A stretch of 64,000 nt of DNA from a virus (Duplodnaviria; Heunggongvirae; Uroviricota; Caudoviricetes). Where the stretch lies: the IMG/VR virus record IMGVR_UViG_3300032893_000003, positions 78,633 through 142,632 of that record. One strand, 5' to 3'. The translations under genes and the position numbers were made by a program. Of this stretch, positions 32,616-52,148 are shown piece after piece. Each line of letters begins with the position of its first letter. Position 1 is the first letter of the stretch. The notes beneath the pieces are model-generated. The model was not told where the DNA came from and did not search any database. It was given only the letters and a program-made list of their open reading frames with translations.

Positions 32616-34376
32616 CTAAATACTATTAATCACAAGTTCACTCAACGAACTATCAACCTTAGCCACAAAAATCTGTACGTCTTTCGGAAGCAGATCCACA
32701 TATTTGTCTACGAGGTCAGCATTATCAAAAAACATCCAGCTTGGCGGCTGCTTTGAAGCTTTACGCAAACTTTGGCAGAAAGCTAGGTCTACCTTCATGC
32801 GTCGACCGGAAGATAAACTTGGATAGAGGATGCCGCTACTTTTAACAGTTAACTCCCCGTCCTGAAATTCGACAACAACGCCAGGGACTTGTAAGGTCTC
32901 AAGCAGTGTCTTAGTTTCGATTTCTGGTAGCTTACGCAAAGCATTTTCAAGCTGTGCGCAGGAATCAACGTAGTGCTTCAACTCTAAATTAGACTTGGTT
33001 AGTAGCGCCTCTTGTGCCTTAAGATGCTCGAGCTGAGTTTCATGCCTTTTAACAGCATTGATATCGGTACTAAGCTCTAACTGTTCTTTTTGGAGTTCAG
33101 AGCGGTCGGTTGTAGGTTTTGATGGAGCCTGGGGCTTACTCGGGTTCATGGCTTTAAGCTTCTCATCGAACTCGTCCATTAGCTTATAAGTCCGCTCGTT
33201 CTCGCGTTCAATCTCGTTGATGCGCGCAACAGCTTTCCGATGGCTTTCCTCAAGCTTACTGATGGCCTCTTTTTGCGCTAAGATGTTTTCGTTAAGGGAG
33301 CGATTGTGCTTCTCAACAGCGCTTGCCTCTTTGTTGTATTCTGTAAGCATACGCTCGTATGCCTCCATGATCCGATTCAGATGGCTGCCGTCGATTTTCT
33401 GTCCACACTTGTCGCACTCAGCGCCTTCCTGAAGAGAAGCACCAGTTGGCTTCTTTGGAGCATTCGGAGGTGTCCTGAACTTTTGCTCAAGGGCGGCGAT
33501 CGTCTTGTTGAGATCAGCGATCTCCGTGTCAATAGTTTGAGTGTGCGTCTCCAGCTTATCCACTTCGTCAGTGGGTAGTATCTTCAGCTTTTGACGTTCT
33601 TTGCGATATTCCGCAAGCCTAGCTTCCTGACTTTCCCATCGCGCCAAGTCCCCGTTATATTTAGCAAGTATCTTGTCGTAGGTCGTATGCTCCTCAAGAG
33701 CCGCGTTAACTTCGTTAAGGCGAGCCTGGAAAGATTCTACATCTGCCACCGCAGCGCCAGCTAGTTGCTGTAACTGAGTGACAACGACCTTTAAAGCGCC
33801 CTCATTACTCGCCATCTTGTTTTGGGCTTGTCTTCTATCGCCCGCTATAGCGTCTGCATCAATCCTTGGATTTGTGAGCTTCACTTTAGCTGGAACCTGA
33901 AAACCCTGCGGCAATTGACCCATAAGAAGCGCGCGCCTATCTAATTGCGCAAGCTCTGCCATAACGGCTAATTTCTTCTCAGTCTTAAGTTCCATGAAGT
34001 AGCCAACATTCCAGCAGCTCATAAAGGCTTCAAGACTTGATTTCAAAAGGTTTTGCAGATCTGTCTGAGACATCGGAACCGGAGGCAAGTTCTGGCGGGC
34101 GAGCTTTAAAGCGCTCGTGGCTCCGCGGCGTTTCTTACGCATAATGGTAGACTTAGGTGTCGCGATTGCGACTTCCATCTCTTCGGCACCCTCAGTAATC
34201 AAATGATCTGGATTCTTTGTGCCCACTGCGTCTGTACCAAACCATGCAAAGGCTATCGCTTCTTTAATCGTGCTCTTACCGCATTCATTAGGACCGCGAA
34301 GGATGTTGATCCCAGGGAAGAATGAAAGTTCCCTTGTATGCCCTCTAAAGTTCACTAAACTGATTTTTCCGATCAT
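32616..34376 (-). CDS. Rad50/SbcC/T4-gp46-like SMC-type ATPase
   Basis: Carries Walker A GPNECGKSTIKEAIAFAWFG (compare T4 gp46 GRNGGGKSTMLEAITFGLFG), a long coiled-coil, the signature-like SSGRRMKVDLAFC and the Walker B MFFDNAD. The tool start at 34484 is GTG; I used the ATG at 34376 with a GGAGA RBS. Confidence 0.75.
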   Translation of the reverse strand: MIGKISLVNFRGHTRELSFFPGINILRGPNECGKSTIKEAIAFAWFGTDAVGTKNPDHLITEGAEEMEVAIATPKSTIMRKKRRGATSALKLARQNLPPVPMSQTDLQNLLKSSLEAFMSCWNVGYFMELKTEKKLAVMAELAQLDRRALLMGQLPQGFQVPAKVKLTNPRIDADAIAGDRRQAQNKMASNEGALKVVVTQLQQLAGAAVADVESFQARLNEVNAALEEHTTYDKILAKYNGDLARWESQEARLAEYRKERQKLKILPTDEVDKLETHTQTIDTEIADLNKTIAALEQKFRTPPNAPKKPTGASLQEGAECDKCGQKIDGSHLNRIMEAYERMLTEYNKEASAVEKHNRSLNENILAQKEAISKLEESHRKAVARINEIERENERTYKLMDEFDEKLKAMNPSKPQAPSKPTTDRSELQKEQLELSTDINAVKRHETQLEHLKAQEALLTKSNLELKHYVDSCAQLENALRKLPEIETKTLLETLQVPGVVVEFQDGELTVKSSGILYPSLSSGRRMKVDLAFCQSLRKASKQPPSWMFFDNADLVDKYVDLLPKDVQIFVAKVDSSLSELVINSI

Positions 34377-34839
34377 AGGTGAGTCTCCATTTGTTAAATA
34401 AATCTTTAGCGTTTGTCGCAACACAGAGTGGGCACTTTGGACTATCAAATGAATGCCATTCTTTGCCGACCATAAACTCTGCACCGCAATTATTGCACTT
34501 ATATCCTAGACCAGCCCATTTATGCCTCCAGCCCGCCGCCTGCCAATAGAGCAGTCTAAAGCCAGTAAGAAGGAGCCGAACCGCATGAACTAGCTGCGAG
34601 TTCTCGTGTCTTAAAGTTCCAATTTCATCTGTCATACGTTTTTGCACATGATGAAGTTTTTTAGTCTTCATAATACGCGCTTCAAGGTCAGCCACGCCCT
34701 GTTCCCGATCCAGTAAGTTTAGGACAAACTCGAAGTCATCCAACATTGGATTGGGAATAGGGACCGCTCTGACCCTTTGAAATTCAACCTTAATGGCATC
34801 AAGCCTGTCGCGCTCCTCTTTGGTCATTAATGGACCCAC
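34345..34839 (-). CDS. hypothetical protein with a C-terminal zinc-ribbon
   Basis: 164 aa with CNNCG...CPLC. Confidence 0.5.
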   Translation of the reverse strand: MGPLMTKEERDRLDAIKVEFQRVRAVPIPNPMLDDFEFVLNLLDREQGVADLEARIMKTKKLHHVQKRMTDEIGTLRHENSQLVHAVRLLLTGFRLLYWQAAGWRHKWAGLGYKCNNCGAEFMVGKEWHSFDSPKCPLCVATNAKDLFNKWRLTYDRKNQFSEL

Positions 34840-35438
34840 CGCCCCAAATAATCAAACATACTTTTTTGCTTCTCAGCAAAGTTGTGCTGTAAGAGAGCTA
34901 CAGAGTGATGAAGGGCGTCAGGAATCCCCATCGTCGTATTTTCGACATTTGCTATAGAGCAGCCGCGATCCGCGATGAGAGCTGTGCATGCGTCAAAAAT
35001 AACATAAGTCTGTTCGGAAAACTTCAGGTCCTTGTATTTAAGATCAGAAAAAAAGATATCGCGCGCTTGAGAGAAAACCTCCTGCAAATTTTTAGATGCT
35101 TCGAGTATTTCTTTATGCCGCTTTTCTGTCATCTCTTCGCTTTTAATGGGACCCGCGGGTGCCGCGGCACCTAAGACTTCCATAACGCTTTCTTTAGGCT
35201 TTTCCATGTTAGACCCCCCAGTCTGTGCCCCAGCTGTTTCTTGTAACGAAAGCCTGGATTGCATCTCTTTCACGTGTTGAATGGCACGTGCATAGTTGTG
35301 ACTCAGGTATCGAACCTGTGCTTTCAGGTCTTCGATCTCTTTGTCGGTTGCAGCTTCCGATGAAGCTGGTAAAGATCTCGTTTTTGCGGGCTGGGGAAGA
35401 AGCCATTGCATAAGCCATTGCTTGATCCGATTCATCAT
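34827..35438 (-). CDS. hypothetical protein
   Basis: 203-aa ORF. Confidence 0.5.
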   Translation of the reverse strand: MMNRIKQWLMQWLLPQPAKTRSLPASSEAATDKEIEDLKAQVRYLSHNYARAIQHVKEMQSRLSLQETAGAQTGGSNMEKPKESVMEVLGAAAPAGPIKSEEMTEKRHKEILEASKNLQEVFSQARDIFFSDLKYKDLKFSEQTYVIFDACTALIADRGCSIANVENTTMGIPDALHHSVALLQHNFAEKQKSMFDYLGRWVH

Positions 35439-35482: not shown

Positions 35483-35860
35483 TCAAGGTTTCTTATCCGC
35501 GTCGCTCTTATCATGTTGATCCTCCATTTGCTTAACAATACTCTTAATCGTGATGTCGTACCAGTAGCTCCAGTTTGCCTTAATTTTTTCAAAGACAAAC
35601 TCTTTTGAAGCGGCCTTATCTTTTAAAAGCGATGCCATATATGTAGCCAAAAGCCCCACAGAGACTCCGGTAAAAATGTAGCCCGCGTCTTCAACTAAAG
35701 CCTCGTCTGGAATTTCGTTTGAAACACGGCACACGCATTCCTCGACCAAAGAACTTACTATCTTTTGTAGATTTTGAATGTGCTCTTGATGTTTCTTAGC
35801 AGCTGCCTTTAAACCCGTATTCATTAGGTTTTCTTTTTCCCAAAGTGCTTTTTCATCCAT
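35483..35860 (-). CDS. hypothetical protein
   Basis: 125-aa ORF. Confidence 0.5.
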   Translation of the reverse strand: MDEKALWEKENLMNTGLKAAAKKHQEHIQNLQKIVSSLVEECVCRVSNEIPDEALVEDAGYIFTGVSVGLLATYMASLLKDKAASKEFVFEKIKANWSYWYDITIKSIVKQMEDQHDKSDADKKP

Positions 35861-36182
35861 GAGGCATCTCCACGACTTGCTTCATAAGCTGTTCATAAGG
35901 GGCTAAATCTTTATGCAAATGCTCTGGCAGGTTTTTCCTCGCCAACTGAAATAGATCACAAAATGCGCGATAAAGTGTAGGAGCCGCAATCACGATGTTC
36001 CCGCGTGAACGGATAGTGCCGTAATTAAGGCCATGGATGTCGGCGACGCGCCCGCCTGTTTCGCGATCGATCACACAGGCCGATGTCCCACTCTTAACTT
36101 CCAGTCTCCAGTCAAATTCGATAGGCTTAGGTTTTGATGGCTGGTTTAGCAAAGGCTTCCAGTTTACGTTTGTCTCCGCCAT
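35853..36182 (-). CDS. hypothetical protein
   Basis: The tool ORF extends to 36257 through the promoter motif. The ATG at 36182 (MAETNVNW...) has a GAAGGAG RBS. Confidence 0.5.
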   Translation of the reverse strand: MAETNVNWKPLLNQPSKPKPIEFDWRLEVKSGTSACVIDRETGGRVADIHGLNYGTIRSRGNIVIAAPTLYRAFCDLFQLARKNLPEHLHKDLAPYEQLMKQVVEMPHG

Positions 36183-36207
36183 TTGTTGCTCCTTCGTTTT
36201 GTAAAAT

Positions 36208-36228
36208 AATAGGAAAAAATTTCCTATT
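36208..36228. promoter_or_regulatory. palindromic motif copy A (AATAGGAAA-AAA-TTTCCTATT) in the promoter region of the 35853-36182 gene
   Basis: Perfect 9-bp inverted arms. Read on the minus strand it gives TTTTTTCCTATTATTTTAC, containing a TATTAT -10-like hexamer. Confidence 0.55.
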
Positions 36229-36268
36229 TGTCTTTGACTATTACGCTTATGACGCAAATAAGCTAAAT

Positions 36269-37084: not shown

Positions 37085-37367
37085 CTAAATCCTCCGTTGT
37101 TGCAGGCACGAGCTTAAATAGCGGCGTGACCCCTGCCTCTACACACATCCTCTTAGCTTGCTCATTGAGATAGAGATAAACAAGCATCTCCGGTTGTATC
37201 CGCACAGCATCAGCCCAGGCTACTAAAAATTTCCCAGGAATTGGTTTAATACTTAGCTCCACCGCATCCACTGTGCGCACATCACATCCCACAACTCTCG
37301 CTAAACTTTCATTTGTATGCCCAACACTCTGGCGCAGTTGGCGCGCGACAAGTCCGAACCCTTTCAT
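37038..37367 (-). CDS. XRE-family helix-turn-helix transcriptional regulator
   Basis: The N-terminal LRQSVGHTNESLARVVGCDVRTVDAVE fits an HTH_XRE domain. A palindromic operator lies immediately upstream. Confidence 0.6.
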   Translation of the reverse strand: MKGFGLVARQLRQSVGHTNESLARVVGCDVRTVDAVELSIKPIPGKFLVAWADAVRIQPEMLVYLYLNEQAKRMCVEAGVTPLFKLVPATTEDLDGYGRSHEQDARRNF

Positions 37368-37381
37368 AAGTACCTCCCAAA

Positions 37382-37417
37382 TACTAATTGCTACTAATTA
37401 CTACTAACGTTAGTAGT
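37382..37417. promoter_or_regulatory. operator-like array: two direct TACTAATT repeats followed by the perfect 18-bp palindrome ACTACTAACGTTAGTAGT
   Basis: The sequence TACTAATTgcTACTAATTACTACTAACGTTAGTAGT sits 15-35 nt upstream of the XRE regulator start. A GTGGCAC-N5-GTGGCAC direct repeat lies further upstream near 37466-37485. Confidence 0.55.
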
Positions 37418-37535
37418 TACTGAACTTATGACAGGATTTAAAAGATTTAAGAATGGATGGGCGGTGGCACCTTCCGTGGCACAATCCAACCGCGCCCGAA
37501 ACTATTTTAGCTACGTTCACGTAAATCACAAAGAT

Positions 37536-38000
37536 TTAATTTAGTAACCGCTTTTCAAAGTTACTTTCGACGACCTGGTTTGTTTCTGTGTTGACTCGAC
37601 ACGTGAAGTAGTACGTGTCTGTACTCACCGCAAACACAAAACGCTTGATTTTTAGAACGCAGTCCCAAAAGTTATCGATGATTTCTTTATCAGCCGCGAG
37701 CTCGTACGAAAAGGTTTCCGTATCCTCATAAGAGGACTGCTCATCACTTGGAGGCAAGAACAAATAAAGCTGAAGCCTCGCTTCCGCTAGCTCGTCGCGA
37801 TCAAGGACCCCTCCATCGATCTTGATGAGATCTTCTTCTGGGGGATAGTCCTCGCAGCCAATATAAACGGCCGTGACGGTAGGAGATTGGTTCTTAAAGT
37901 TTCCGTCTTCGACAGGCGAGAGGACGAAATATTTGGGCTTAGGAAGCGCCTGCTCCCCTTCATTAGGGTCATTTGGCTTATTCCCCTCGTCTGTGCTCAT
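37536..38000 (-). CDS. hypothetical acidic protein
   Basis: The N-terminal 33 codons of the tool ORF (37536-38099) are Arg-rich read-through. I used the ATG at 38000 (MSTDEGNK...). Confidence 0.45.
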   Translation of the reverse strand: MSTDEGNKPNDPNEGEQALPKPKYFVLSPVEDGNFKNQSPTVTAVYIGCEDYPPEEDLIKIDGGVLDRDELAEARLQLYLFLPPSDEQSSYEDTETFSYELAADKEIIDNFWDCVLKIKRFVFAVSTDTYYFTCRVNTETNQVVESNFEKRLLN

Positions 38001-38734
38001 GCCCCTCCTGACGCGGCGCTCACGCCCGTTTTTGACATCGAGAACACCGTTCCTGTCACCTGATCGAAGTTTACGTAAACTAGGTCTCCTTCTTTCCATG
38101 GATCCGCCTGTCTCTGGGAACTAATAAGCCATGTGTAGAGAACGCCGCTGCGGCACATGGCTACAAGGCGGCCAGGGAGTTTGAAAATAAGGGTTGCCTC
38201 AACCGTTGCCGGCTCGGCCTGCCCACCGCCATCACGATTAAAAGGTTTTCTCAAAAATAATTCCCCATGTCTAATTTTCAGGGGGCTGCCGATTTTACGT
38301 CAAACTATGAAAGGTCTGGGAAGACTTTATAAAAGCGCTATCCATAAGCAAAAGTTTTTAAGCCGCGGAGTGACGTGTAAATGTCAATACTTCCTAAAAC
38401 ATAAAGGAACCCATGGAAAAAATTAATTTCACAAGAATGGGGGTAGATATATATTTGTGTTTTTAATTTCATTACGCACACAGTATATTATATAAAAATG
38501 GTATGACATTGATGACACTCACCGCGTTATTTGTATACACGAGCTTTATCAACATCTTGACGCAATAGGTGCCACTTTTATCAGCATAAAAAACGTCTAC
38601 TTTGTAAGCTATTCAGTGCGTCAATTTCTAGTGATTTTGTTTAGACGCGCCATAGTTAAATTGACGCGTTAGGTTACGGTGACAAAAATTGTCACTTTTT
38701 ATACGGAGCATTACGTGCTAGACTAGGTGCATCC

Positions 38735-38773
38735 AAAAAATGTCAGCGGTTTGTGTAAGCCAAACCGCTGACA
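38735..38773 (-). terminator. rho-independent terminator in the AT-rich strand-switch region
   Basis: The 13-bp perfect stem TGTCAGCGGTTTG/CAAACCGCTGACA with a 7-nt loop is followed on the minus strand by TTTTTTGG. Confidence 0.6.
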
Positions 38774-38936
38774 GAATAGATAACGTCTGCTTATACATCG
38801 GCGCGTTAAACGACATATTAAAATTCGGCAAAATTTTCGTTATATCGGCTCGACATATCGAAAATGCGCGACTGTTTCAACCGTTGCGCCATGTCGCAAT
38901 TTTAATGTAAAATGATAATTGCGGAGGTGTATCGAA

Positions 38937-39173
38937 ATGATGACTAACTCTATTCAATACAAGAAGCCTTTGTTGAAGCAGGGCGGCATTATATCCACCC
39001 AAGCAGATGGCGTAGTGTGTCTAGATATGTCTGGGACAATGTCCTACATGATCGACACGTCGGACGACAACGGGCAAGTTTGCTACTTCCAAAATCCCGG
39101 GGTCGGCGAAGACACAACTATGACCACGCTGTATGCCCAAGCAAAGGCGGCTTATCCAGCGTTATTTATTTAA
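38937..39173 (+). CDS. hypothetical small protein
   Basis: The RBS GCGGAGGTG sits 6 nt before ATGATG. The tool ORF 38919-39173 is in the same frame. Confidence 0.45.
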   Translation: MMTNSIQYKKPLLKQGGIISTQADGVVCLDMSGTMSYMIDTSDDNGQVCYFQNPGVGEDTTMTTLYAQAKAAYPALFI

Positions 39174-40160: not shown

Positions 40161-41123
40161 CTAAAGCGTCTGATAAATATCCAAAAACTTCTGTGTAGTG
40201 ATTGTAGGATGCCAATACTTTTCCATCCACTTCCTACTTCCGTCAGCGACTAACTTAACTCCGTAAGGGTCATGGATGCAAGAGATTAGGAGTCTTCTTA
40301 GTCCATACTTGTCGGCTATTCGCCACGGCAAAACGTCAGCTCCGGTTAGATCTTTAAGGGTTTTAACCTGGAGTTCATCAAGGCCGGCAATGGTCAATAG
40401 ACCCTGGCTTAGCGCTTCAAGCGAACAGAGATGGTATGAACCCGTAATGATCTCGTCGATCGCTATGTGTCCGCGGCCCCTATGTTCCAGGCACTCGGCA
40501 TGAGGCTTATCGAAGATAACTTCTGCCGTGATAAATTTCTTATTTACGAATTCTTGTAAGACAGGCACTGTCTCGTCATAGCCTTTGTCATCCCAGCCAG
40601 GTAATCTGATCCGCGAAGGGGAAAAGATGACTCGAAGCGGGATAGTCCAGTCTCTTTCTATCGGCGTAAGTTCGGGAAGGGTAATATCGATGACATTTGG
40701 GACGACTGTACATTCGGGCCACTGCCTTGGATGATACTGCCCAATAACGAGATGTTTTGCTTTAGCGTCCTTAAGTCCTTCCTCAATGTCCATCCACGTA
40801 GTGGATCTTTGCGAGTGGACTTGCCATACTCTGGCTTTCGCTTTTCCAATCTCCCAGAGATCGGGGTATCTTTTGAATAAGTCTTGTCTTGAATAGAAGT
40901 TATGGAAGTGCCAGATGTCGGCCCACCGCAAGGTATCTCTGATCTCTTCATACGTATTTTTAGTAGTTAACATATCTGATTTGAAAACTCTATTTTCATT
41001 TCTGTCAGATGCCGCGATGTGCCTGGACTGGACCTTGCCCGCTTGGAATTTATTAAGCGCCAGATTTAAGTTCATCGGCGCGCCGGCAATGGGGTTCTCG
41101 GTGATGTGGATGACTTTAATCAT
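40161..41123 (-). CDS. glycosyltransferase, GT-B fold (GT4-like)
   Basis: 320 aa with IAIDEIITGSYHLCSLEALSQGLLTIAG resembling the GT4 sugar-donor-binding region. Confidence 0.6.
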   Translation of the reverse strand: MIKVIHITENPIAGAPMNLNLALNKFQAGKVQSRHIAASDRNENRVFKSDMLTTKNTYEEIRDTLRWADIWHFHNFYSRQDLFKRYPDLWEIGKAKARVWQVHSQRSTTWMDIEEGLKDAKAKHLVIGQYHPRQWPECTVVPNVIDITLPELTPIERDWTIPLRVIFSPSRIRLPGWDDKGYDETVPVLQEFVNKKFITAEVIFDKPHAECLEHRGRGHIAIDEIITGSYHLCSLEALSQGLLTIAGLDELQVKTLKDLTGADVLPWRIADKYGLRRLLISCIHDPYGVKLVADGSRKWMEKYWHPTITTQKFLDIYQTL

Positions 41124-41142: not shown

Positions 41143-41172
41143 TTGACGAGCTAGGAAATTATTTCCTATTAT
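41143..41172 (+). promoter_or_regulatory. sigma70-like promoter (-35 TTGACG, 18-nt spacer, -10 TATTAT) with palindromic motif copy B (AGGAAAT-T-ATTTCCT) in the spacer
   Basis: It lies 38 nt upstream of the first plus-strand gene (the Fis-type HTH at 41210), in a divergent intergenic region. Confidence 0.6.
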
Positions 41173-41209
41173 AAATTCAGTTGTTTAGGAAGATCAAGGA
41201 TATTTAAAA

Positions 41210-41410
41210 ATGGGCTCGACTTTACCACAAGGTACTTTGACACTATCGTCTCCAAAGTCTTTACAGGACGTGGAAAGAGCCTACATTCTTGAGGTATTAG
41301 TTCATTGTAGATGGCGCATCACAGCCACCTGCCGGATACTAAAAATTTCACGAGCAACTCTGTACCGCAAAATTAAACGGTATGGATTTAAAAAGGAAAC
41401 TAACACATGA
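41210..41410 (+). CDS. Fis-type (HTH_8) small DNA-binding protein, paralog 1
   Basis: The C-terminal ILEVLVHCRWRITATCRILKISRATLYRKIKRYGF matches the Fis/NtrC C-terminal HTH (compare [25 protein letters not shown]). Confidence 0.65.
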   Translation: MGSTLPQGTLTLSSPKSLQDVERAYILEVLVHCRWRITATCRILKISRATLYRKIKRYGFKKETNT

Positions 41411-42018
41411 GACACTTTTCGTCAGACTTTCACATTTGGCATACCAATGTTGTCGTAAAATACGGCCGCGGTCATTTCGGCACGATCGAGAACATGAACG
41501 AGTCCTTAATTAAAAACTGGAATGAGCGCGTGAAGCCAGAGGACACAGCCTATATGCTTGGCGACTTCGCTTTAGCCTGGCAGCCCGTGGGGCGCTACAC
41601 TCGCCGCTTAAACGGGAATAAAGAGCTTGTTGCGGGTAATCATGACTATTGTCATCCGGCCTGTAAACAGGCTCGGAAAAAGAATCCTGATCGCCAGTAC
41701 TGGATCAACCGCTACAAAGATCTTGGCTGGTCTAACGTATTTCTAGTCGGCGATATTACGTTAAAAAACGGTATGAGGTTTAAGATGTGTCACTTGCCCT
41801 ACGTTACGGGCGACTCGCATGACGTAAAGCACTTTGAGCACCGCATTGATGATCAGGGGATACCACTTTTATGTGGTCATGTGCACACTGCGTGGAAACA
41901 TCGGTATACGCCGAAAGGAACACTCATGATCAACGTTGGCGTAGATCAATGGAATTATGCGCCGGTATCAGAAGACGAGCTTTGCGAGTACATTAAAACT
42001 TTAGGAGGGCCCAAATGA
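41407..42018 (+). CDS. calcineurin-like metallophosphoesterase
   Basis: Contains SDFHIWH, GDF, VAGNHDY and CGHVHTAW motifs. Confidence 0.7.
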   Translation: MRHFSSDFHIWHTNVVVKYGRGHFGTIENMNESLIKNWNERVKPEDTAYMLGDFALAWQPVGRYTRRLNGNKELVAGNHDYCHPACKQARKKNPDRQYWINRYKDLGWSNVFLVGDITLKNGMRFKMCHLPYVTGDSHDVKHFEHRIDDQGIPLLCGHVHTAWKHRYTPKGTLMINVGVDQWNYAPVSEDELCEYIKTLGGPK

Positions 42019-42362
42019 GCACTGAAAGAGAAGTGTTTAAAAAGATAGATGACTTGGTTAAAAATCATCAGTTCGAAAAGGACAAATACGCTATAGCCGC
42101 CTTCTCTTTAGCGAAGGCAGCGCTGAAGGAAGTAATGCTCGAGCATCCTGAGATCGAGGTGCTTAAAAGTACGGAGAATGGCTTCTACCTCAGGGTTTAT
42201 GTTGATGGTGAATTTAATGGCCCTGCTGGTCTGCACATGACTGGCAAACATGAAAAGCTCGCAAAGTGTTTGGAAGTTTTAGAAGAAAAGCTAAGGATCC
42301 TCGATTATTTACCGAGAAAGATTTTTATCACTCAAGCTGACGCAAGAAGGGAGACCGCATGA
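42015..42362 (+). CDS. hypothetical protein
   Basis: 115 aa with ATGA coupling. Confidence 0.5.
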   Translation: MSTEREVFKKIDDLVKNHQFEKDKYAIAAFSLAKAALKEVMLEHPEIEVLKSTENGFYLRVYVDGEFNGPAGLHMTGKHEKLAKCLEVLEEKLRILDYLPRKIFITQADARRETA

Positions 42363-42446
42363 TTTTAGATTTTATAAGTAACCACTCAGACGAAGTGTGC
42401 GGAATGTTTATCATTATTGTCATCTTAATCTTTATGAGGAACTAAA

Positions 42447-42884
42447 ATGAAAATAGAACAGGTTTACCCAGGAGTCTTTAGAAGTGCCCAACCTGAAGTG
42501 CAAGCCGACTTCGAAGCTGTGTTAAAACTCGGCCAGAGGGTTGTAGTCATAGATCTAGAAAATGAAAGCGGAGAAAGCCCGTGGGAGCAGGCCCAGTGGG
42601 CACAGTTTGCAGCCCGGATAAACTTCCAAAGTTTTCCGATGTCGAGCTTTTGGCCACCATCAGAAGATAAGGTAAAGCAGATATTAGCCACTATTGCTTC
42701 GGCTGTCGCGCAAGGCTTTGTGGTTCTTGTCCACTGTAAGCATGGCCAAGACCGCACTGGACTTATTATAGGAGAGCTTAGGCTCTCGAAAGGCTGGGAC
42801 AAAGACGATGCTTGGGGCGAGATGCTTGATAAGGGATTTCACCCAATTCTTTTGGGGCTTACGATTTATTTCTGGTTACACTAA
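42447..42884 (+). CDS. protein tyrosine/dual-specificity phosphatase (CX5R)
   Basis: Contains VVLVHCKHGQDRTGLIIG, matching the HCxxGxxRT P-loop. Confidence 0.7.
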   Translation: MKIEQVYPGVFRSAQPEVQADFEAVLKLGQRVVVIDLENESGESPWEQAQWAQFAARINFQSFPMSSFWPPSEDKVKQILATIASAVAQGFVVLVHCKHGQDRTGLIIGELRLSKGWDKDDAWGEMLDKGFHPILLGLTIYFWLH

Positions 42885-42899
42885 ATAAAGGAGATTTAT

Positions 42900-43076
42900 A
42901 TGGCTAAAGAAGAAACAACAAAAAGTACGGGGAAGGGTGATACTAAAATCATCACTTGCTCGTGCCATCACGACTATCAGGACGAAAAGTACGGCAAAGG
43001 TCGAAGGCTCTATAACCCTTGTAAAGACGGTAAGGCTCATCGCTGTACCGTATGCGGTACTGAGCGGCTGAATTAA
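42900..43076 (+). CDS. small zinc-ribbon protein (58 aa; below the ORF-track cutoff)
   Basis: RBS AAAGGAG. The translation is MAKEETTKSTGKGDTKIITCSCHHDYQDEKYGKGRRLYNPCKDGKAHRCTVCGTERLN. Confidence 0.45.
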   Translation: MAKEETTKSTGKGDTKIITCSCHHDYQDEKYGKGRRLYNPCKDGKAHRCTVCGTERLN

Positions 43077-43134
43077 TTTTTATTTAGTTTGCTGTATTCG
43101 CTTAGCTGGCGAGTATAGTGAAGAGGAGATTTAA

Positions 43135-43374
43135 ATGGAATCACAATTTGAAGTACCTGTAATGAGGCTGATTCTGGTCATAGGAGCCGTTATCACAGGC
43201 CTCTGGTATCTCTGGCCGGACCCAACTCGCGATATGTGCCACCAAATGGCTGAAGATATGACGCGGTCTATGTATCCGGTGTGTCACGACACTGCAAAAA
43301 TTGTGGATGAACTGACCACGACCTGCGTTGATTATGTCAACGCCAGTCCATTAGGTCATTCGAGGGCGTTCTAA
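43135..43374 (+). CDS. small membrane protein
   Basis: 79 aa with the hydrophobic segment LILVIGAVITGLWYLW. Confidence 0.45.
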   Translation: MESQFEVPVMRLILVIGAVITGLWYLWPDPTRDMCHQMAEDMTRSMYPVCHDTAKIVDELTTTCVDYVNASPLGHSRAF

Positions 43375-43613
43375 TGAGTGATGAAGAATTTTGGAATGCT
43401 ACAGAGCTCGGTCACCTTGAAGAACGGTGCAATGAGCTTAGGACGCTTATGATGAGCCAGCGGCCGTTACGATTTACCATCTGGGGCGATAACGGCGCTG
43501 TTGAAGGAAATTTCTTACCCCACGAAGTTGTTCGGGACTGCATCAGGGTTGAGTTACAGAAGGTCACCGCAAAGATTGTTCGCCTTCGAAAGGAGATAGA
43601 ATGCTCGAAATAA
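43374..43613 (+). CDS. hypothetical protein
   Basis: 79-aa ORF with ATGA coupling. Confidence 0.45.
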   Translation: MSDEEFWNATELGHLEERCNELRTLMMSQRPLRFTIWGDNGAVEGNFLPHEVVRDCIRVELQKVTAKIVRLRKEIECSK

Positions 43614-43716
43614 ATTTTAAACAATTTTCAGTATGGCAACGGATCGCGATTGCTTGGCACATTTTGCTTGGTAGAACGTGCCAGTTCAATGAATCGACAA
43701 CTGCGAACGTTGAATA

Positions 43717-44010
43717 TTGCAAGAGGGACGCATGATAACGGTTCAAGAGATGGAGCCAGAGCGCTGTCCGCGGTGCTCAGGTAAAACGATAGCCGTAGCC
43801 CGTAATATGAAAGGCACAAGGAGCTGTGCTGACTGTCATCTTACTTGGAATCCGTATGTTCGCGTGGAGGACCGTAGTTGGCAGAGAGCCCGCGAGATAA
43901 TATCCCAAATACTTGTGGCCCATGGCAGCAGTATCCCTATTGGGTACATAAACGAACTTAAAACTATATTTGGATTGCCTGGAGGAAATTATGAACATGC
44001 TACCGATTGA
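43717..44010 (+). CDS. zinc-ribbon protein
   Basis: 97 aa with CPRCSGK...CADCH. Confidence 0.45.
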   Translation: MQEGRMITVQEMEPERCPRCSGKTIAVARNMKGTRSCADCHLTWNPYVRVEDRSWQRAREIISQILVAHGSSIPIGYINELKTIFGLPGGNYEHATD

Positions 44011-44242
44011 GTTTGTCCAGGGGGACCAAGGTCCTCACTATACGGACACAATTGAGCTCGCTCTTGAGCGATGTGTGGTTACAGAAAAGGGCACACAAGG
44101 CGGACTTCCCATCGTGGACTTTGTGATGAAAGGTCCTGCTGGTCAGAAGTATATGTTTTGCGTGACAGGCCGAATGATGACAATGCTTGCGGCTGCTATC
44201 AAAGGCGTTAACGTACGTAACCACGGAGTGGCTGAGCCATGA
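43970..44242 (+). CDS. hypothetical protein
   Basis: 90-aa ORF. Confidence 0.45.
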   Translation: MDCLEEIMNMLPIEFVQGDQGPHYTDTIELALERCVVTEKGTQGGLPIVDFVMKGPAGQKYMFCVTGRMMTMLAAAIKGVNVRNHGVAEP

Positions 44243-44481
44243 AGGAGTCTAATATGAGAAAAAACAAAAAAGTTTCAAAAGGCGCTTACGAAAGAGGGTA
44301 CTTGAAAGCCGTTAAGGACTGCGCAATTCTTGCTCGCAGGTGGGCTAAGAACTATCCGATTGATGTGTTTCCTCCACCGAAGGCTGGCGACGAGTCTTCA
44401 TCAGTTAGGGCGGCAGCGCAGATGGCACGACATACGTGCGAAACTTTAGCCATGAAAATGTGGGAGGAGCTAAAACCATGA
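44239..44481 (+). CDS. hypothetical protein
   Basis: 80-aa ORF. Confidence 0.45.
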   Translation: MKESNMRKNKKVSKGAYERGYLKAVKDCAILARRWAKNYPIDVFPPPKAGDESSSVRAAAQMARHTCETLAMKMWEELKP

Positions 44482-44711
44482 GCTACAAAACAGAACTTGA
44501 GCCAGTTTACAGAACCTACACCATTAAAGCTCCGTCGAAGTTACTCCCAAGTGCAGAGCAGGTCCTTGGGAGAATCATCTTTAAAGACAAAGAGTTTTCT
44601 CACTGTGAATTTAAAGGCAAGAATCCTTATTCTCGGGAAGACTGGAAGATGCTTGCTTTTATCGAGAAGTCGATCGGTAAGATCGAAAAGGAGTTAGCAA
44701 ATGGAAAATGA
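44478..44711 (+). CDS. hypothetical protein
   Basis: I used the ATG start (MSYKTELEP...) with ATGA coupling. The tool start at 44436 lies upstream in the same frame. Confidence 0.4.
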   Translation: MSYKTELEPVYRTYTIKAPSKLLPSAEQVLGRIIFKDKEFSHCEFKGKNPYSREDWKMLAFIEKSIGKIEKELANGK

Positions 44712-44919
44712 TCCGGTAAACTCGCCAAAACACTATACGTCACATCCATCAGGGATTGAATGCATTCAAGTTACGAGGCACATGGGATTTAATCTCGGGA
44801 ATGCCTTCAAATACATCTGGCGTGCTGATCTTAAAAACGGAGTCGAAGATCTTAAGAAAGCTATTTGGTACATCAATGACGAGATTGAAAAAAGAGAAGG
44901 TAAGAATGGAGCCGTTTAA
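44701..44919 (+). CDS. hypothetical protein
   Basis: 72-aa ORF. Confidence 0.4.
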   Translation: MENDPVNSPKHYTSHPSGIECIQVTRHMGFNLGNAFKYIWRADLKNGVEDLKKAIWYINDEIEKREGKNGAV

Positions 44920-45238
44920 TGGTTTAACTCCTGCGCAAGTGGAACGTCTTGCGGTCCTTAGCGAGGAGCTAGGTGAGGCGCAACAGCGTGTTGGCAAGAT
45001 CTTAAGACATGGCTATACCCGTTCGAAAAAGGTCGTAAACAACCGCGAACAGCTGGAGATTGAACTTGGAGACGTAATGGCAGCCATTTCAGTTCTTGTG
45101 CGATATCAGGATCTGAGACTGGGCCGCATACGGGATCGTAAACATCACAAGCTTCAAACTGTTTGGGATTATTTGCATCACAACAAGAAAGAAGATGTCT
45201 ATGTATCAGAGGATGAAGGACGGCCTGATAACCTATAG
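44906..45238 (+). CDS. MazG-like nucleotide pyrophosphohydrolase (paralog 2)
   Basis: Starts MEPFNGLTPAQVERLAVLSEELGEAQQRVGKILRHGY and contains ELGDV. The tool ORF begins at 44756, but the ATG at 44906 has RBS GAAGGTAAG. It is a paralog of the 18266-18607 gene. Confidence 0.6.
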   Translation: MEPFNGLTPAQVERLAVLSEELGEAQQRVGKILRHGYTRSKKVVNNREQLEIELGDVMAAISVLVRYQDLRLGRIRDRKHHKLQTVWDYLHHNKKEDVYVSEDEGRPDNL

Positions 45239-45434
45239 CAATGGACGGCTATGGGGCGCTGCTGGCGGCCAGCTCGAATACGTCTCGCAAGAGATCGTGC
45301 TTGATCCTGTGCTTGGGCAATTTGTGATGCTCATCAAGTTTACTGATCATGATCACAGTTTTAACAATCCAGAAGATGCGCCCGACCTCGTTGAAGGGCG
45401 CTACTATGTTCTGGAAGTTCCACTTGCGGAGTAG
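45195..45434 (+). CDS. hypothetical protein
   Basis: 79-aa ORF. Confidence 0.4.
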   Translation: MSMYQRMKDGLITYSNGRLWGAAGGQLEYVSQEIVLDPVLGQFVMLIKFTDHDHSFNNPEDAPDLVEGRYYVLEVPLAE

Positions 45435-45438
45435 ATTT

Positions 45439-45717
45439 ATGAAAAAAGCTAAAAGAGAAGTGTGGCTAGAGGTGAGGCAAGATGGCACGTACGTCGAAGT
45501 TCACGACAAGCCAGAGAAGACTTATAAAGACAATGATTTGATTAAACTTGTGGACGCTGAGTCCTTTGATAAGTTGGCAGCCGAAAACTGGGTTCTACAC
45601 GACACGAATCTTCGGACATATGACGGCATGGCAAGGAGAGCAGACAAGTACGACAAAGTCATGAGGCTCTTAGTGAAACTTGCAGAAGACATCAACAAAA
45701 TTTCGGAGGAAAAATGA
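45439..45717 (+). CDS. hypothetical protein
   Basis: Starts at the ATG of MKKAKREVWLEV... The tool start at 45349 lies upstream in the same frame. Confidence 0.45.
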   Translation: MKKAKREVWLEVRQDGTYVEVHDKPEKTYKDNDLIKLVDAESFDKLAAENWVLHDTNLRTYDGMARRADKYDKVMRLLVKLAEDINKISEEK

Positions 45718-46166
45718 AGCAAAAGGCTATAATTTGCGATCTCGATGGGACGCTTTTTGACATCAGACACCGCGAACATTTGGCGCGAGAGAAGAAGTGG
45801 GATGAATTTCACGCTGCCATGATCAACGATACTCCGCATAACTGGTGTGCGCAGCTCATTAGAACTTTCTGTTTTTCCGATGTGGCTGGTATGTTTGATG
45901 TGCTCTATGTTACCGGTCGGCCAGAAAAATACCGCGAAACTTCTGCGGAAGTTCTCCGGCTTCATCGCCTAGACCTGCACGAAGCTCTTTTCATGCGCAA
46001 GGATAACGATTTTCGCAAAGACGCGGTTGTGAAGACAGAAATCTACAATGAGCACATCAAAGATAAATACGATATCTTATTTTGCCTTGAAGACCGCAAG
46101 CAGGCTGTCGATGCTTGGCGGGCGTTGGGGCTTACTTGCTTGCAATGTGCGGAAGGGGATTTTTAA
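45714..46166 (+). CDS. HAD-superfamily phosphatase
   Basis: The N-terminal AIICDLDGTLFD matches HAD motif I (DxDGT). Confidence 0.65.
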   Translation: MKQKAIICDLDGTLFDIRHREHLAREKKWDEFHAAMINDTPHNWCAQLIRTFCFSDVAGMFDVLYVTGRPEKYRETSAEVLRLHRLDLHEALFMRKDNDFRKDAVVKTEIYNEHIKDKYDILFCLEDRKQAVDAWRALGLTCLQCAEGDF

Positions 46167-47141
46167 GTGATTGCGCTAGCGGTCAGCTCGGCGTGGCCGC
46201 GGTACCACGCTTCATCACCGTTTCTAAATCTCTTCAATGCCATACACCCTAAGTTTTTGCCATGCCACGCCTTGCCGCACGAGGTGGCTAGCCCCGAGTA
46301 TCAGGCGAAGGTTAATTCTTGCAGTGCCTTGGTAGTTGACGATGTTCTTTCACAACATATGGGTTTTTACAAGAACGGCCCAAAGCTCATGATTGGCGGT
46401 GACCCGCATGCACATAGACCGGACCAGGTTGAAAGGCTTACCAAAGAATATAACTGTGTCGATTACGTTCTCACAGGGGCTGTATTTAGTAGGAAGCTTA
46501 AAGACAAGTATCTCTATCCGGCTGATGAGCTTTGGAATAAGCACGTTTATTTTCCGCACATGGTTCCGGACACATTGCCAAGTGGTCTAACAAACTGGAC
46601 TGCGCGCGCTGACAGAGTACTTCTCTCAGGGGACCTATCTGAAGCTGTATACCCTTACAGATATGCGTGTGCTCAGCTCGCGAAGACAGCGCATTCCCCG
46701 CTGGAAGTGCTGGGGCGAAACGACTTCCATCACACGAAGTACTTTGAAAAGCTTGCGCAATATAAGGCAGCGACGACGTGCACATCTATTTTTAGATATA
46801 TGGTGGCTAAGTACCTTGAGATCCCGTGGGTTGGTACAGTTCTAATGGCACCCAGACCCATCACCGATGAATGTGTGCTTATGGGCTTTGAGGATTGTGT
46901 CAATGTCATTTGGTGTGAAATGCCGGAGGAAGTGCCGCTTCATTTTAAAAAGATGCTTCCACTTCTCGAAGAGGTTGGGGAAGCAGGATCTAAGCTCATG
47001 CGCGAGCATCATACGACAACAAGAAGGCTTGACTACATTGTCCATCTCGTTGACCGTATAAATAAAGGCGGTTTTGTGCCAGAAGACGCAAAACAGCTTT
47101 TCTTAGACTTGCGCAAAGGAGCTGTGCATGCACTTCCCTGA
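46167..47141 (+). CDS. hypothetical protein (324 aa); a GT-B-like C-terminal half is possible
   Basis: The start is GTG. The C-terminal YMVAKYLEIPWVGTVLMAP weakly resembles the nucleotide-sugar-binding segment of GT-B glycosyltransferases. Weak evidence. Confidence 0.45.
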   Translation: MIALAVSSAWPRYHASSPFLNLFNAIHPKFLPCHALPHEVASPEYQAKVNSCSALVVDDVLSQHMGFYKNGPKLMIGGDPHAHRPDQVERLTKEYNCVDYVLTGAVFSRKLKDKYLYPADELWNKHVYFPHMVPDTLPSGLTNWTARADRVLLSGDLSEAVYPYRYACAQLAKTAHSPLEVLGRNDFHHTKYFEKLAQYKAATTCTSIFRYMVAKYLEIPWVGTVLMAPRPITDECVLMGFEDCVNVIWCEMPEEVPLHFKKMLPLLEEVGEAGSKLMREHHTTTRRLDYIVHLVDRINKGGFVPEDAKQLFLDLRKGAVHALP

Positions 47142-47763
47142 TGATTTTTTCCCAGGCAATCATATCCATGAAACGGCTGTTATCTCAACAGGTGCTCAGA
47201 TAGGGACTGGAAACATAATTGGTCCCTACTGCTACATTGGGTCTGAAGTTACGATCGGCAACAACAACCACTTTTTTGGTTATGTCTCAATCGGCATGAC
47301 GGCTGAACATAGAGATTATTTTAACAGTCCTGGTGAAGTTGTGATTGGAAATTCTAATGTGGTGCGGGAATTTGTGACAATTAATTCATCCACAAAGGGC
47401 GTTACAAAGATGGGGAATGGCTGCACCATGCTTCGGGGCAGCCATTTGAGCCATGATTCAGTTCTTGAAGATCGCGTGACAGTGTCATGTAACGTTTTAA
47501 TTGGCGGGGAGTCTTACATCATGGAAGGAGCTAATCTGGGATTAGGAGCGGTTCTTCATCAGTATCAGGTTATTGGCGCTTACGCGATGCTTGGGATGGG
47601 TGCTGTCGTTCCTAAAAAGACCGATATTCTGCCTGGTCAGATCTATGCTGGGAATCCCGCTAAATTTTTAAAACGAAACGAAATTGGGCTTGAACGAAAC
47701 AAGATATCAGCCCAGCTTCTGGCAGAACTAACTGATAAATATTGGAAACTCAGGAGAAAATAA
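47128..47763 (+). CDS. left-handed beta-helix hexapeptide-repeat acyltransferase, LpxA-like
   Basis: Contains IHETAVISTGAQIGTGNIIGPYCYIGSEVTIGNNNHFFGYVSIG as hexapeptide repeats, in a pattern like the LpxA N-terminus. Confidence 0.65.
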   Translation: MHFPDDFFPGNHIHETAVISTGAQIGTGNIIGPYCYIGSEVTIGNNNHFFGYVSIGMTAEHRDYFNSPGEVVIGNSNVVREFVTINSSTKGVTKMGNGCTMLRGSHLSHDSVLEDRVTVSCNVLIGGESYIMEGANLGLGAVLHQYQVIGAYAMLGMGAVVPKKTDILPGQIYAGNPAKFLKRNEIGLERNKISAQLLAELTDKYWKLRRK

Positions 47764-47764
47764 A

Positions 47765-48505
47765 ATGGAAGAATATTTTGTGGTCGCAGATATTGCGGGG
47801 CAGTTTGACGCCCTTCAAAGACTTGTAAAGCGTGTGCCAGAGACAACGCCCATCATTCTTGTTGGGGACCTTGTTGACCGCGGGCATGAATCTTACGAGG
47901 TTGTGGATTGGGCGATGAAGACCCCAAGGGTTACGAGTCTGCTGGGGAATCACGAACACATGATGTGGGACTATTACACTAATTACGGATCTAAAACCTT
48001 TTATGATGATATTGAGGGGCAACCGTGCTGGCTTTACTGTGGACAAAACGGCAATAACGGAGGGGGAGCTACGAGAGCCTCATATTCTAGGAATGGCTTT
48101 AAGCGCCCTCCCCAGGAACACCTTGATTGGATTATAAGCCGCCCACTTCATTTTCAAACGGAAGATAAGAAGATGGTTGTTACTCACGCGCCGATTCTAG
48201 CTGGCGAGACGTTGGAGTCAGCCCTTCAGAAGACGGCTGAGTTTGTAAAGAACGGCGGGTACCGCCACGCGGATGGATCCTTAATATGGAATAGGACCCC
48301 TCCTACACACAAACCATATTTACAGATTTTTGGTCACAACTCGTATTGGGGTTTGCAACCCTTCTACAGCAAGGATGACGAGGCTGTCGGGGATATCTAT
48401 GCTTTGTGCATAGATCAGTCAGGAAAGGGTATTTTAACAGGTTTTCACTGGCCAACCTACGAAATTCTAGAAGAGCACTACCTCGCAAGCGATAACCCAA
48501 AATAA
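47765..48505 (+). CDS. lambda-PPase-like Ser/Thr protein phosphatase (PPP-family metallophosphoesterase)
   Basis: Contains GDLVDRGHESYEVVDW, LLGNHEHMMWDYY and NGGG, closely paralleling lambda PPase (GDLVDRGAENVECLEL, RGNHEQMMIDG, LLNGGG). Confidence 0.75.
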   Translation: MEEYFVVADIAGQFDALQRLVKRVPETTPIILVGDLVDRGHESYEVVDWAMKTPRVTSLLGNHEHMMWDYYTNYGSKTFYDDIEGQPCWLYCGQNGNNGGGATRASYSRNGFKRPPQEHLDWIISRPLHFQTEDKKMVVTHAPILAGETLESALQKTAEFVKNGGYRHADGSLIWNRTPPTHKPYLQIFGHNSYWGLQPFYSKDDEAVGDIYALCIDQSGKGILTGFHWPTYEILEEHYLASDNPK

Positions 48506-48525
48506 TCTGGTCTTGTTTAGAAGAT

Positions 48526-48556
48526 AGAGACCTTTCATAATTTATGAAGGGTCTCT
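48526..48556. promoter_or_regulatory. 15-bp-arm inverted repeat (AGAGACCTTTCATAA-T-TTATGAAGGGTCTCT, 1 mismatch) ending 5 nt before the metalloprotease start codon
   Basis: The hairpin would sequester the region immediately 5' of ATG 48561. No T-run follows it, so it is not a classical terminator. Confidence 0.4.
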
Positions 48557-48560
48557 GAAA

Positions 48561-49115
48561 ATGAAGATTTTATTGTTCATTTTATTCTTCGCCTTGCCCG
48601 CCGAGGCTCAATGGAGCGTTGATCAAAACCTAAGATCTTACGCTGAAGACTTTATTGGAGACAGCCACGGTATGCTTCGTGATGGCGATCTTGATCACGT
48701 ACACTTTAAATTTGAAAAGCTAGGTTACGATGTGAAACTGGGTTCTGGCATTATCGGGATGTGCTATCGCACAATCTTTTCCGACAACTTTACGATCGGC
48801 ATTGACCCTGACTACTGGAACAACGCCTACACTTGGGAGGATGACAGATGGCAGCTTATGTATCACGAACTCGGGCACTGCATGTGCAATCTCGAACACC
48901 CCATCGATTCAGAGCCATTAAAGTTCATCGAATTTTTAGGAAGGTACGGCATAAAACATAACCGCTACAAAATGTTCTTCGACGGCTGTCCCATGACTCT
49001 CATGCACCCGATTAACGTCGAGCATTACTGCCTCAACAACCACAGGGAATATTACGTTAAGGAAATCTTCAAGCATTGCAGGGTCTTACGAACTTCTGAC
49101 TTCTCCACTGATTAG
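48561..49115 (+). CDS. secreted zinc metalloprotease-like protein (HExxH)
   Basis: The signal peptide MKILLFILFFALPAEAQ is followed by MYHELGHCM (HExxH) with downstream His and Cys residues. Confidence 0.6.
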   Translation: MKILLFILFFALPAEAQWSVDQNLRSYAEDFIGDSHGMLRDGDLDHVHFKFEKLGYDVKLGSGIIGMCYRTIFSDNFTIGIDPDYWNNAYTWEDDRWQLMYHELGHCMCNLEHPIDSEPLKFIEFLGRYGIKHNRYKMFFDGCPMTLMHPINVEHYCLNNHREYYVKEIFKHCRVLRTSDFSTD

Positions 49116-49209
49116 TGGGTGCCTTTTTTATTTAGCTATTATATGATGGCTCTAATTAGCTCTCTTAAAAACGCGGACCGAGAGCGCCGCATACAAAAAG
49201 GAGGCCACA

Positions 49210-51903: not shown

Positions 51904-51940
51904 AATGTCACCTCCTGCAGCCCTTATACGACTAAATGGG

Positions 51941-52138: not shown

Positions 52139-52148
52139 AGGGAATAGC

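Follow-up and report, generated by a model that had tools for sequence, protein, structure and literature searches.

A stretch of 64,000 nucleotides from an uncultivated phage of the Caudoviricetes (IMG/VR record IMGVR_UViG_3300032893_000003, positions 78,633 to 142,632), termed the window throughout, carries one palindromic motif at four loci, S1 to S4, each of which overlaps a putative promoter. This palindrome is likely to be an operator, a site at which a protein would bind over putative sigma-70-type promoters. The reading that we favour, with a probability of about 0.55 and on the strength of sequence comparison, is that a small Fis-type helix-turn-helix (HTH) protein named HTH2 binds the palindrome and represses transcription. 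The gene for HTH2 directly follows S3, while the gene for a second small HTH protein, HTH1, directly follows S2.

The palindrome and its putative promoters

Searching the window with AGGAAAWWWTTTCCTATTA at two mismatches or fewer yields five matches, whereas 0.02 are expected from 100 dinucleotide shuffles, none of which reached five; these five fall at four loci because the symmetric S1 is matched on both strands. The bare core GGHAAWWWTTDCC is found four times (0.18 expected), exactly at S1-S4. A position weight matrix (PWM) built from the four sites gives each of them more than 32 bits and the best unrelated position 12.6 bits, so that on this matrix the 64 kb holds no weak or degenerate family members. 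In a k-mer census of the window, the motif is the only repeated family besides ribosome-binding sites (TAAAGGAGAT...). The initial annotation had described a palindrome that recurs in four copies. Both the recurrence (four loci against the expected 0.02) and the dyad symmetry are borne out, S1 being a perfect 8+8 palindrome, and the coordinates agree within 1-2 nt. On a PWM of the wider family there is a sub-threshold match, CGGCAA-AAT-TTTCGT, at 38822-38844 (15.3 bits), and another at the 3' end of HTH2 (table 1); either may be a weak operator or a chance match.

The palindrome is kept at equivalent gene junctions, S1' to S4', across relatives that share 38-73% identity with the window in their AEP primases. 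The relatives are designated here by locus, with AEP identities of 73% for L038/L054, 57% for L039/L055, 54% for each of L076 and L078, 52% for L041/L056, 47% for L077, 45% for L043 and 44-38% for L046, L047 and L048; paired names denote syntenic neighbourhoods of one relative each. S4' occupies the equivalent divergent region in L038, L041, L043, L048, L076, L077 and L078. S3' lies upstream of the HTH2 ortholog in L038, L041, L077 and L078; in L043, L046 and L076 its form is degenerate. S2' is found beside the 320-aa gene in L054, L056, L043 and L046, and S1' in L054. In a five-genome alignment of S2 (A3) the invariant columns concentrate on TAGG.A...ATT.CCTA, and the consensus of the family is the 17-bp TAGGMAA-WWW-TTKCCTA. 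The three central positions are A or T in 45-50 of 50 half-oriented sites, and the outer T and A are enriched, though absent from the pattern by which sites were selected.

Variation around this consensus is symmetrical. Left halves include AGGAAA, AGGCAA, GGGAAA, CGGAAA and GGTAA and right halves TTTCCT, TTGCCT and TTACC, and the third half-site position may be A, C or T on either arm. The register of the palindrome to the promoter hexamers also differs between sites. It abuts the -35 box in the S3 class and at L047 13728, L061 5261 and L064 2746; it abuts the -10 box at S1, S2 and S4, is centred on the -10 box at S2' of L043 and L046, and lies just downstream of a -10-like GATAAT or AATATT at L047 13423, L061 4886 and L064 2369. 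Mirrored half-site variation and a shifting register argue for a protein-binding operator and not for a promoter element. In L077, a 25-nt promoter-operator, TTGACGCGGCAAAATTTTCCTATTA, is present at 13520 and 13831, 311 nt apart, one copy before a 72-aa gene and the other before HTH2, which looks like local duplication of a regulatory module.

All four copies in the window are oriented toward the adjacent downstream gene, whose ATG lies 16-37 nt past TATTAW, and the putative operators overlap consensus-like -35 and -10 hexamers with spacers of 17-18 nt. The copies had earlier been placed on core promoter elements heading four operons, two of which open with small Fis/NtrC-type HTH genes, and this arrangement is supported; TTGACG at 41143 and TTGCCA at 62496 hold, paired with TATTAT across 18 and 17 nt, respectively. 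The further statement that each copy lies at a -10-like hexamer needs a correction at S3, where TATTAA (52154-52149) is just 14 nt from TTGACG, a non-standard spacer, and a 17-nt register gives TAAGCT in its place.

Putative promoter P-S1 heads an operon comprising 35853-36182, 35483-35860, 34827-35438 and onward genes, with the Shine-Dalgarno (SD) sequence AAGGAG ahead of the ATG at 36182 (gene 35853-36182), and its ortholog in L054, at 15208, reads TAGACA-17-TATTAT. P-S2(+) would serve HTH1, a phosphoesterase gene (41407-42018) and a plus-strand block to ~50007; its orthologs are TTGACT-18-TATTCT in L054 and TTGACA-18-TACCAT in L056. On the opposite strand, the -10 box of P-S2(-) adjoins the other end of the S2 palindrome, and this promoter would serve 40161-41123 and leftward genes; TTGCAT-17-GAGAAT, read by eye, stands at its position in L054. 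Since the palindrome lies between divergent -10 boxes, one bound protein could block both promoters. P-S4 would serve 62550-63194, 63212-63562 and onward genes, and has orthologs in L038 (TTGTCA-17-TATTAT), L076 (TTGCCA-17-TATTGT), L077 (TTGTCA-17-TATATT) and L078 (TTGCCT-17-TACTCT).

S3 overlaps the final seven codons and the stop codon of a DEAD-box helicase gene (52149-54158). The site is the same in L038, and L041 keeps it in non-coding DNA: there, the helicase is absent upstream of HTH2, yet TTGACGGGGAAAAATTTTCCTATTAT stands in a reading frame that a stop codon closes. This retention rules out coding constraint at the C-terminus of the helicase as the cause of S3 conservation.

Table 1. 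Palindrome matches, putative operators and promoters, and HTH genes in the window
Feature	Position	Strand	Description
S1 consensus match	36207-36225	-	0 mismatches
S2 consensus match	41153-41171	+	0 mismatches
S3 consensus match	52150-52168	-	1 mismatch
S4 consensus match	62505-62523	+	1 mismatch
Operator S1 (putative)	36209-36227	-	ATAGGAAA-TTT-TTTCCTAT, perfect 8+8 palindrome
Operator S2 (putative)	41152-41168	+	TAGGAAAT-T-ATTTCCTA; in 86-bp divergent intergenic region
Operator S3 (putative)	52152-52168	-	GGGAAA-AAA-TTTCCTAT; begins right after -35 box
Operator S4 (putative)	62505-62521	+	AGGCAA-AAA-TTTCCTAT; divergent region between 62035-62502 (-) and 62550-63194 (+)
Possible weak or half operator	51934-51956	-	TAGGCAA-AAA-TAGCCCA at HTH2 3' end; family PWM 16.6 bits, against at least 25 for S1-S4
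Putative promoter P-S1	36206-36234	-	AAGACA (36234-36229)-17 nt-TATTAT (36211-36206)
Putative promoter P-S2(+)	41143-41172	+	TTGACG (41143-41148)-18-TATTAT (41167-41172); 10/12 positions match
Putative divergent promoter P-S2(-)	41168-41197	-	TTGATC-18-TATAAT; 10/12 positions match; inferred assignment
Putative promoter P-S3	52146-52174	-	TTGACG (52174-52169)-17 nt-TAAGCT (52151-52146); then 7 nt and ATG at 52138
Putative promoter P-S4	62496-62524	+	TTGCCA (62496-62501)-17-TATTAT (62519-62524)
HTH1	41210-41410	+	66-aa Fis/NtrC-type HTH, first gene of S2 operon; Pfam HTH_8, E = 1.4e-14
HTH2	51941-52138	-	65-aa Fis-type HTH; Pfam HTH_8, E = 4.4e-8

HTH2 and HTH1 as candidate binding proteins

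Both small genes had been annotated as Fis/NtrC-type HTH genes and as paralogs of one another. The type is upheld by Pfam HTH_8 (PF02954), which scores HTH1 at 54 bits and HTH2 at 33.2 bits with a gathering cut-off of 22. Paralogy is not supported: BLASTP gives no alignment of HTH1 with HTH2, and the two form separate orthologous groups. HTH2 aligns to residues 52-98 of Escherichia coli Fis (helices B-D; E = 6e-5), including the TRGN(Q/R)TRAA stretch. Its single-sequence AF2 model (pLDDT 72) is a three-helix bundle with helices at 10-25, 30-37 and 41-51, for which the top Foldseek matches are to Fis (TM ~0.66) and also to the DNA-binding domains of NtrC1 and NtrC4. HTH2 orthologs share the invariant stretch G.RT.AA..G.SVRT.R.WI, and the protein has a conserved basic tail, (F/Y)P...G(R/K)..K. 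HTH1 has the NtrC1 DNA-binding domain as its best match in the PDB and aligns to Fis residues 55-97. At 65-66 aa, and covering Fis residues 52-98 or 55-97 only, neither is a bona fide Fis, which has ~98 aa, with an N-terminal beta-hairpin arm and helix A that make up its intertwined dimer.

Orthologs of HTH2 were found by phmmer in L038, L041, L043, L046, L047, L048, L076 and L077; the called HTH_8 gene of L078 is also an ortholog, and scanning metagenomes with the HTH2 alignment brought in L057-L059, L061 and L064. L060 is not long enough to reach the operon promoter. Each of the 13 HTH2-positive genomes or contigs, covered by 15 loci, has GGNAA-N3-TTNCC; the total is 35 sites in 339 kb where 6.4 are expected, whereas HTH2-negative loci of the same AEP family have a single site in 107 kb (2.0 expected). 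Fisher's exact test of motif presence against HTH2 gives p ~0.006 for genomes that are not phylogenetically independent. The HTH2 gene is under its own putative operator (S3), or has an operator at the head of its operon, in all relatives with the upstream region available. The distant HTH2-like loci L062-L075 lack the motif and probably encode other Fis-type proteins.

The L039/L055 genome is syntenic and keeps the helicase, but no HTH2 gene follows it, and there is no palindrome at S1', S2', S3' or S4' in 39.4 kb of syntenic DNA. A search of this motif-free genome for a replacement palindrome found no recurrent one. L055 nevertheless retains an HTH1 ortholog (5973-6158, HTH_8) in mid-operon. 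Thus HTH2 tracks the motif and HTH1 does not, so that of the two Fis-type proteins formerly tied to the palindrome, HTH2 keeps that association and HTH1 loses it. HTH1 orthologs, found in L054, L055, L056 and L076, are usually not the first gene after the operator (in L054 and L056 they are not), and HTH1 is probably a regulated gene and not the binding protein of the motif. Queries with HTH1 gave no exact-product record and no homolog by word-indexed search, and in IMG/VR one match of 40% identity (L001), which carries no motif.

The start of HTH2 lies 14 nt past S3 and has no SD sequence. A layout of -35 box, 17 nt, -10 box, 6-9 nt and ATG precedes HTH2 in the window, L038, L041, L077, L078 and L058, and is repeated at operon heads (L047 13728, L061 5261 and L064 2746) and at the helicase genes of L043 and L046. 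This recurring geometry argues that the transcripts are leaderless, and the HTH2 mRNA from P-S3 is probably of this kind; the cI mRNA of phage lambda from PRM is leaderless, and is a precedent for a phage regulator. Genes that lack an SD sequence and start 6-9 nt past a -10-like hexamer, itself 17 nt from an upstream TTGAC box, are observed at window 52138, L043 14523, L046 3839, L047 ~13760, L058 ~323, L061 ~5291, L064 ~2776 and L077 ~13861. Most other genes of the window have a very strong SD sequence (TAAAGGAGAT). Leaderless mRNAs may be common in these phages. The HTH2 ortholog of L038 (~15821-16014) was left uncalled by the gene caller of the source, presumably for want of an SD sequence, and small leaderless genes elsewhere in the contigs of relatives may likewise be uncalled.

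A proposed repression circuit and its alternatives

From the motif, its positions and conservation, the fold of HTH2 and the co-occurrence of the two, we infer a circuit in which binding, dimer form, repression and early timing are presumed. A dimer of HTH2 would bind TAGGMAA-WWW-TTKCCTA, with each recognition helix reading one GGMAA half-site across the A/T-rich centre. The DNA-binding domains of Fis and NtrC bind as dimers to dyad sites of 15-17 bp with an A/T-rich, compressible centre. With the operator in the -35/-10 spacer, the -10 box or the +1 region, bound HTH2 would sterically exclude RNA polymerase from P-S1, P-S2(+), P-S2(-), P-S3 and P-S4. Spacers of 17-18 nt are optimal for sigma-70, and an element within them is in the classical position of a repressor, as for lambda Cro/CI, LacI-type occlusion and fis autorepression. 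Two features favour repression over activation, namely the position of the sites within or across the core promoter and spacers that have 17-18 nt already.

Four units would be turned down together: at S1, genes of unknown function and possibly, by read-through, the Rad50/SbcC-like gene 32616-34484 some ~1.7 kb downstream; at S2, HTH1, the phosphoesterase, the plus-strand block and probably the divergent leftward promoter; at S3, HTH2 itself and the genes downstream; and at S4, the rightward block from 62550. As P-S3 would drive HTH2, negative feedback would hold the protein at a set level, and the circuit as a whole would amount to the coordinated shut-down of a probably early gene set. The classical autoregulatory layout at the -10 element that was initially proposed remains the best reading of these sites, with the candidate binder narrowed to HTH2. 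The HTH2 regulon may cover early or host-takeover genes.

In the window, the block of the S2 operon (41210-50007, +) contains a DSP-type phosphatase and phosphoesterases, and a gene of the Acb2/Tad1-hairpin family (L055 7459-7698, -) lies in the block of motif-free L055 that matches it. The Acb2/Tad1-hairpin is an anti-CBASS and anti-Thoeris sponge fold, and an island for anti-defence or host takeover may be what the S2 unit represents.

Several points weigh against repression by HTH2. The phyletic argument consists of one informative loss, in the L039 genome, among related and non-independent genomes, and ~24% of the L039 genome is sampled, which leaves room for HTH2 or the motif in the remainder. 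The region shows no enrichment of promoter-like hexamer pairs over shuffles (32 found, 26 expected), and the promoter assignment thus rests on position, orientation and conservation and not on the hexamers alone. The -10 box of S3 in the 17-nt register (TAAGCT) is weak, S2' of L043 and L046 has poor -10 boxes, and a leaderless HTH2 start in L076 would be GTG. HTH2 lacks helix A and the N-terminal arm of Fis, which form much of the Fis dimer interface, and a DNA-bending, Fis-like HTH2 may activate, or both activate and repress.

If HTH2 were such a bender, the palindrome would be an activator site where it brings in RNA polymerase, or remodels it, at otherwise weak promoters; HTH2 would then activate its own gene as part of a feed-forward switch. 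In favour of this, Fis and NtrC-type domains are known chiefly from activators, weak -10 boxes occur at several sites (TAAGCT, TATTTC and TATGCC) and the A/T-rich centre suggests DNA bending. However, the sites lie over the core promoter instead of upstream, good -35 and -10 boxes are already present at S2 and S4, spacers of 17-18 nt make untwisting of the MerR type unnecessary, and the initial synthesis of HTH2 would require an HTH2-independent promoter; activation is, in our estimate, quite unlikely. We think it similarly improbable that HTH1 alone binds the palindrome, or that both Fis-type proteins do so as a Cro/CI-like pair competing for shared operators. Each HTH gene does stand directly behind a copy of the motif, both match HTH_8, and relatives retain HTH1 in their S2 operon, but the two proteins have no detectable similarity, their recognition helices differ (KISRATLYRKIKRYGF vs GVSVRTVRNWIKRFGL), and HTH1 is kept in mid-operon in motif-free L055 and is not first after the operator in L054 and L056.

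The link with HTH2 might instead be coincidental synteny. The motif would then belong intrinsically to a class of phage promoters, for example as a spacer or extended -10 signature, or be the site of another factor, be it a host nucleoid protein or a phage protein. In the window's four sites the right half and the -10 box (TTTCCTATTA) are invariant while the left half varies, and joint loss of the motif and HTH2 may have occurred in one deletion-rich lineage, that of L039. Across relatives, however, the two halves vary equally and as mirror images; the register shifts by up to ~15 nt relative to the -35 and -10 boxes, and the site can be downstream of the -10 box; and the S4 and S2 junctions of L039, which are not adjacent to the HTH2 locus, are also motif-free. 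We consider this explanation unlikely. Chance recurrence of an A/T-rich sequence, or an RNA hairpin serving as terminator or attenuator, can hardly be credited: the sequence is A/T-rich and could fold as a hairpin of 6-8 bp, but its four loci far exceed the shuffled expectation and are conserved at orthologous positions, and the palindrome, upstream of or across the inferred transcription start, would not be fully transcribed.

Some specific candidates were rejected. A terminator scan lists none of the four sites as an intrinsic terminator, the stem is A/T-rich and no T-run follows. For a sigma-54 promoter, the GG and GC in GGCAAnnnTTGCC are 8 nt apart and not 10, and the HTH proteins of 65-66 aa have no AAA+ domain. 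A spacer site of the MerR type would call for over-long spacers of 19-20 nt, and those observed have 17-18 nt.

The phage family and comparison with known regulators

The window is phage-like, and encodes NAMPT, a Rad50/SbcC-like protein, SNF2 and DEAD-box helicases and a 1171-aa AEP-TOTE primase-like protein, whose PF22548 domain comes from precomputed annotation of homologs. For the 1171-aa protein, a large protein collection contains an entry of 100% identity, located on a contig of 175,168 bp, and graded metagenomic homologs of 73% to 37% identity, many of them on contigs of 110-182 kb. Judged by these matches, the window phage is a member of an uncultivated phage family with a genome of ~175 kb. 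GenBank phages gave no DNA match to the window in near or distant search modes, no tblastn match to the 1171-aa protein or to HTH1, and for the SNF2 helicase only matches below 30% identity, with no annotated relative. Searches of the literature turned up neither this phage family nor the HTH2 regulator. An exact scan of IMG/VR with AGGAAANNNTTTCCTATTA returned 23 single matches on unrelated contigs, consistent with chance, and a query of IMG/VR with the DEAD-box helicase returned nothing; loci found with the phosphoesterase (L025-L037) have T4-like or other, non-syntenic contexts and no motif.

Seven tRNAs and one transfer-messenger RNA (tmRNA) are encoded in the window. The full-length tmRNA gene (10437-10861, -; Rfam RF00023, 106 bits) has an ARAGORN tag peptide, GDNVVHVDFGRKAAVARAA*, that may hint at the host; phage-encoded tmRNA is uncommon. 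A lone tRNA at 858-931 (-) has the anticodon CTA, which reads UAG (suppressor type; ARAGORN label 'Pyl'), and a cluster of six at 9016-9568 (-) comprises Ser-GCT, Ser-TGA, Tyr, Pro, Leu-TAA and Leu-TAG. Together they could indicate reassignment or suppression of amber codons in part of the genome. The region ~37085-39160 is of low coding density, with only short open reading frames on both strands and two strong terminator-like hairpins (38773-38741, -, and 38678-38696, +), and has no Rfam match at gathering score. In L076 (6722-9928) and L078 (6685-9927) the SNF2 helicase has ~1070-1080 aa, against 684 aa in the window; a LAGLIDADG_3 match in the L076 protein suggests insertion of an intein or homing endonuclease.

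The proposed circuit has counterparts in well-studied regulators. Like lambda Cro, HTH2 is an HTH protein of ~66 aa that would act at 17-bp (pseudo-)palindromic operators over promoters, including that of the regulator itself, to turn down early transcription, and as at OR and OL one operator is common to divergent promoters at S2. Unlike Cro, HTH2 has the Fis/NtrC fold (HTH_8) and not that of Cro/CI; there is a single operator per promoter, whereas those of lambda are tripartite with graded affinities; and this phage, of ~175 kb with tRNAs and a tmRNA, gives no evidence of a partner CI or of lysogeny. Fis represses its own promoter through overlapping sites. The likeness to Fis and NtrC lies in the alignment of HTH2 to Fis 52-98 and in the superposition of its model on Fis and on the NtrC1/NtrC4 domains. 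However, HTH2 has neither the N-terminal beta-hairpin arm nor helix A of Fis, and Fis Arg85 aligns with Val; it has neither the receiver nor the AAA+ domain of NtrC, and the motif is not a sigma-54 promoter or upstream activating sequence. The Fis site is a degenerate 15-bp sequence, A/T-rich at its centre and bearing G at -7 and C at +7. The motif has an A/T-rich centre, but its invariant GG/CC stand at +/-5 and +/-6, and it is highly specific and not degenerate.

A further comparison is with the Aca autorepressors of acr-aca operons, small HTH proteins (60-125 aa) whose operons have a conserved inverted repeat within the core (-35/-10) of a strong phage promoter; their repression is seen in reporter assays, its proposed or shown mode is exclusion of RNA polymerase, and Aca1 also gives an HTH_8 Pfam match (PMC9410906, Table 1 for the last). 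The resemblance is of a small HTH protein encoded within the operon that it is here proposed to control, with a conserved inverted repeat in the -35/-10 region; it is one of layout. The differences are that the operator is spread over four dispersed promoters where Aca has one operon, that the HTH2 gene is first in its operon and aca last, and that no acr or anti-defence gene was identified downstream of HTH2.

The system thus appears to be a phage repressor-operator regulon of known kind, mildly unusual in its stand-alone Fis-type module and probable leaderless, autoregulated expression. Understanding of phage gene regulation is unchanged by it, since a small HTH gene beside palindromic operators on phage promoters is a textbook arrangement. 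We advance tentatively, and at somewhat less than even odds, the fuller proposal that a mini-Fis of helices B-C-D and a basic tail is the specific master repressor of a multi-promoter regulon, expressed from a leaderless, self-repressed mRNA and conserved across an undescribed family of ~110-180-kb phages in which leaderless promoters appear common. If the favoured reading of HTH2 as repressor is right, the Fis/NtrC DNA-binding module can act as a stand-alone, highly specific phage repressor, and this uncultivated phage family would have its first defined regulatory circuit, in which a candidate regulator of 65 aa acts through one operator sequence on four target promoters. The elements of the circuit, each open to direct testing in E. 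coli as synthetic DNA, might then be used together as a compact, orthogonal repressor-operator pair, and the analysis also points to a probable widespread use of leaderless mRNA in these phages.

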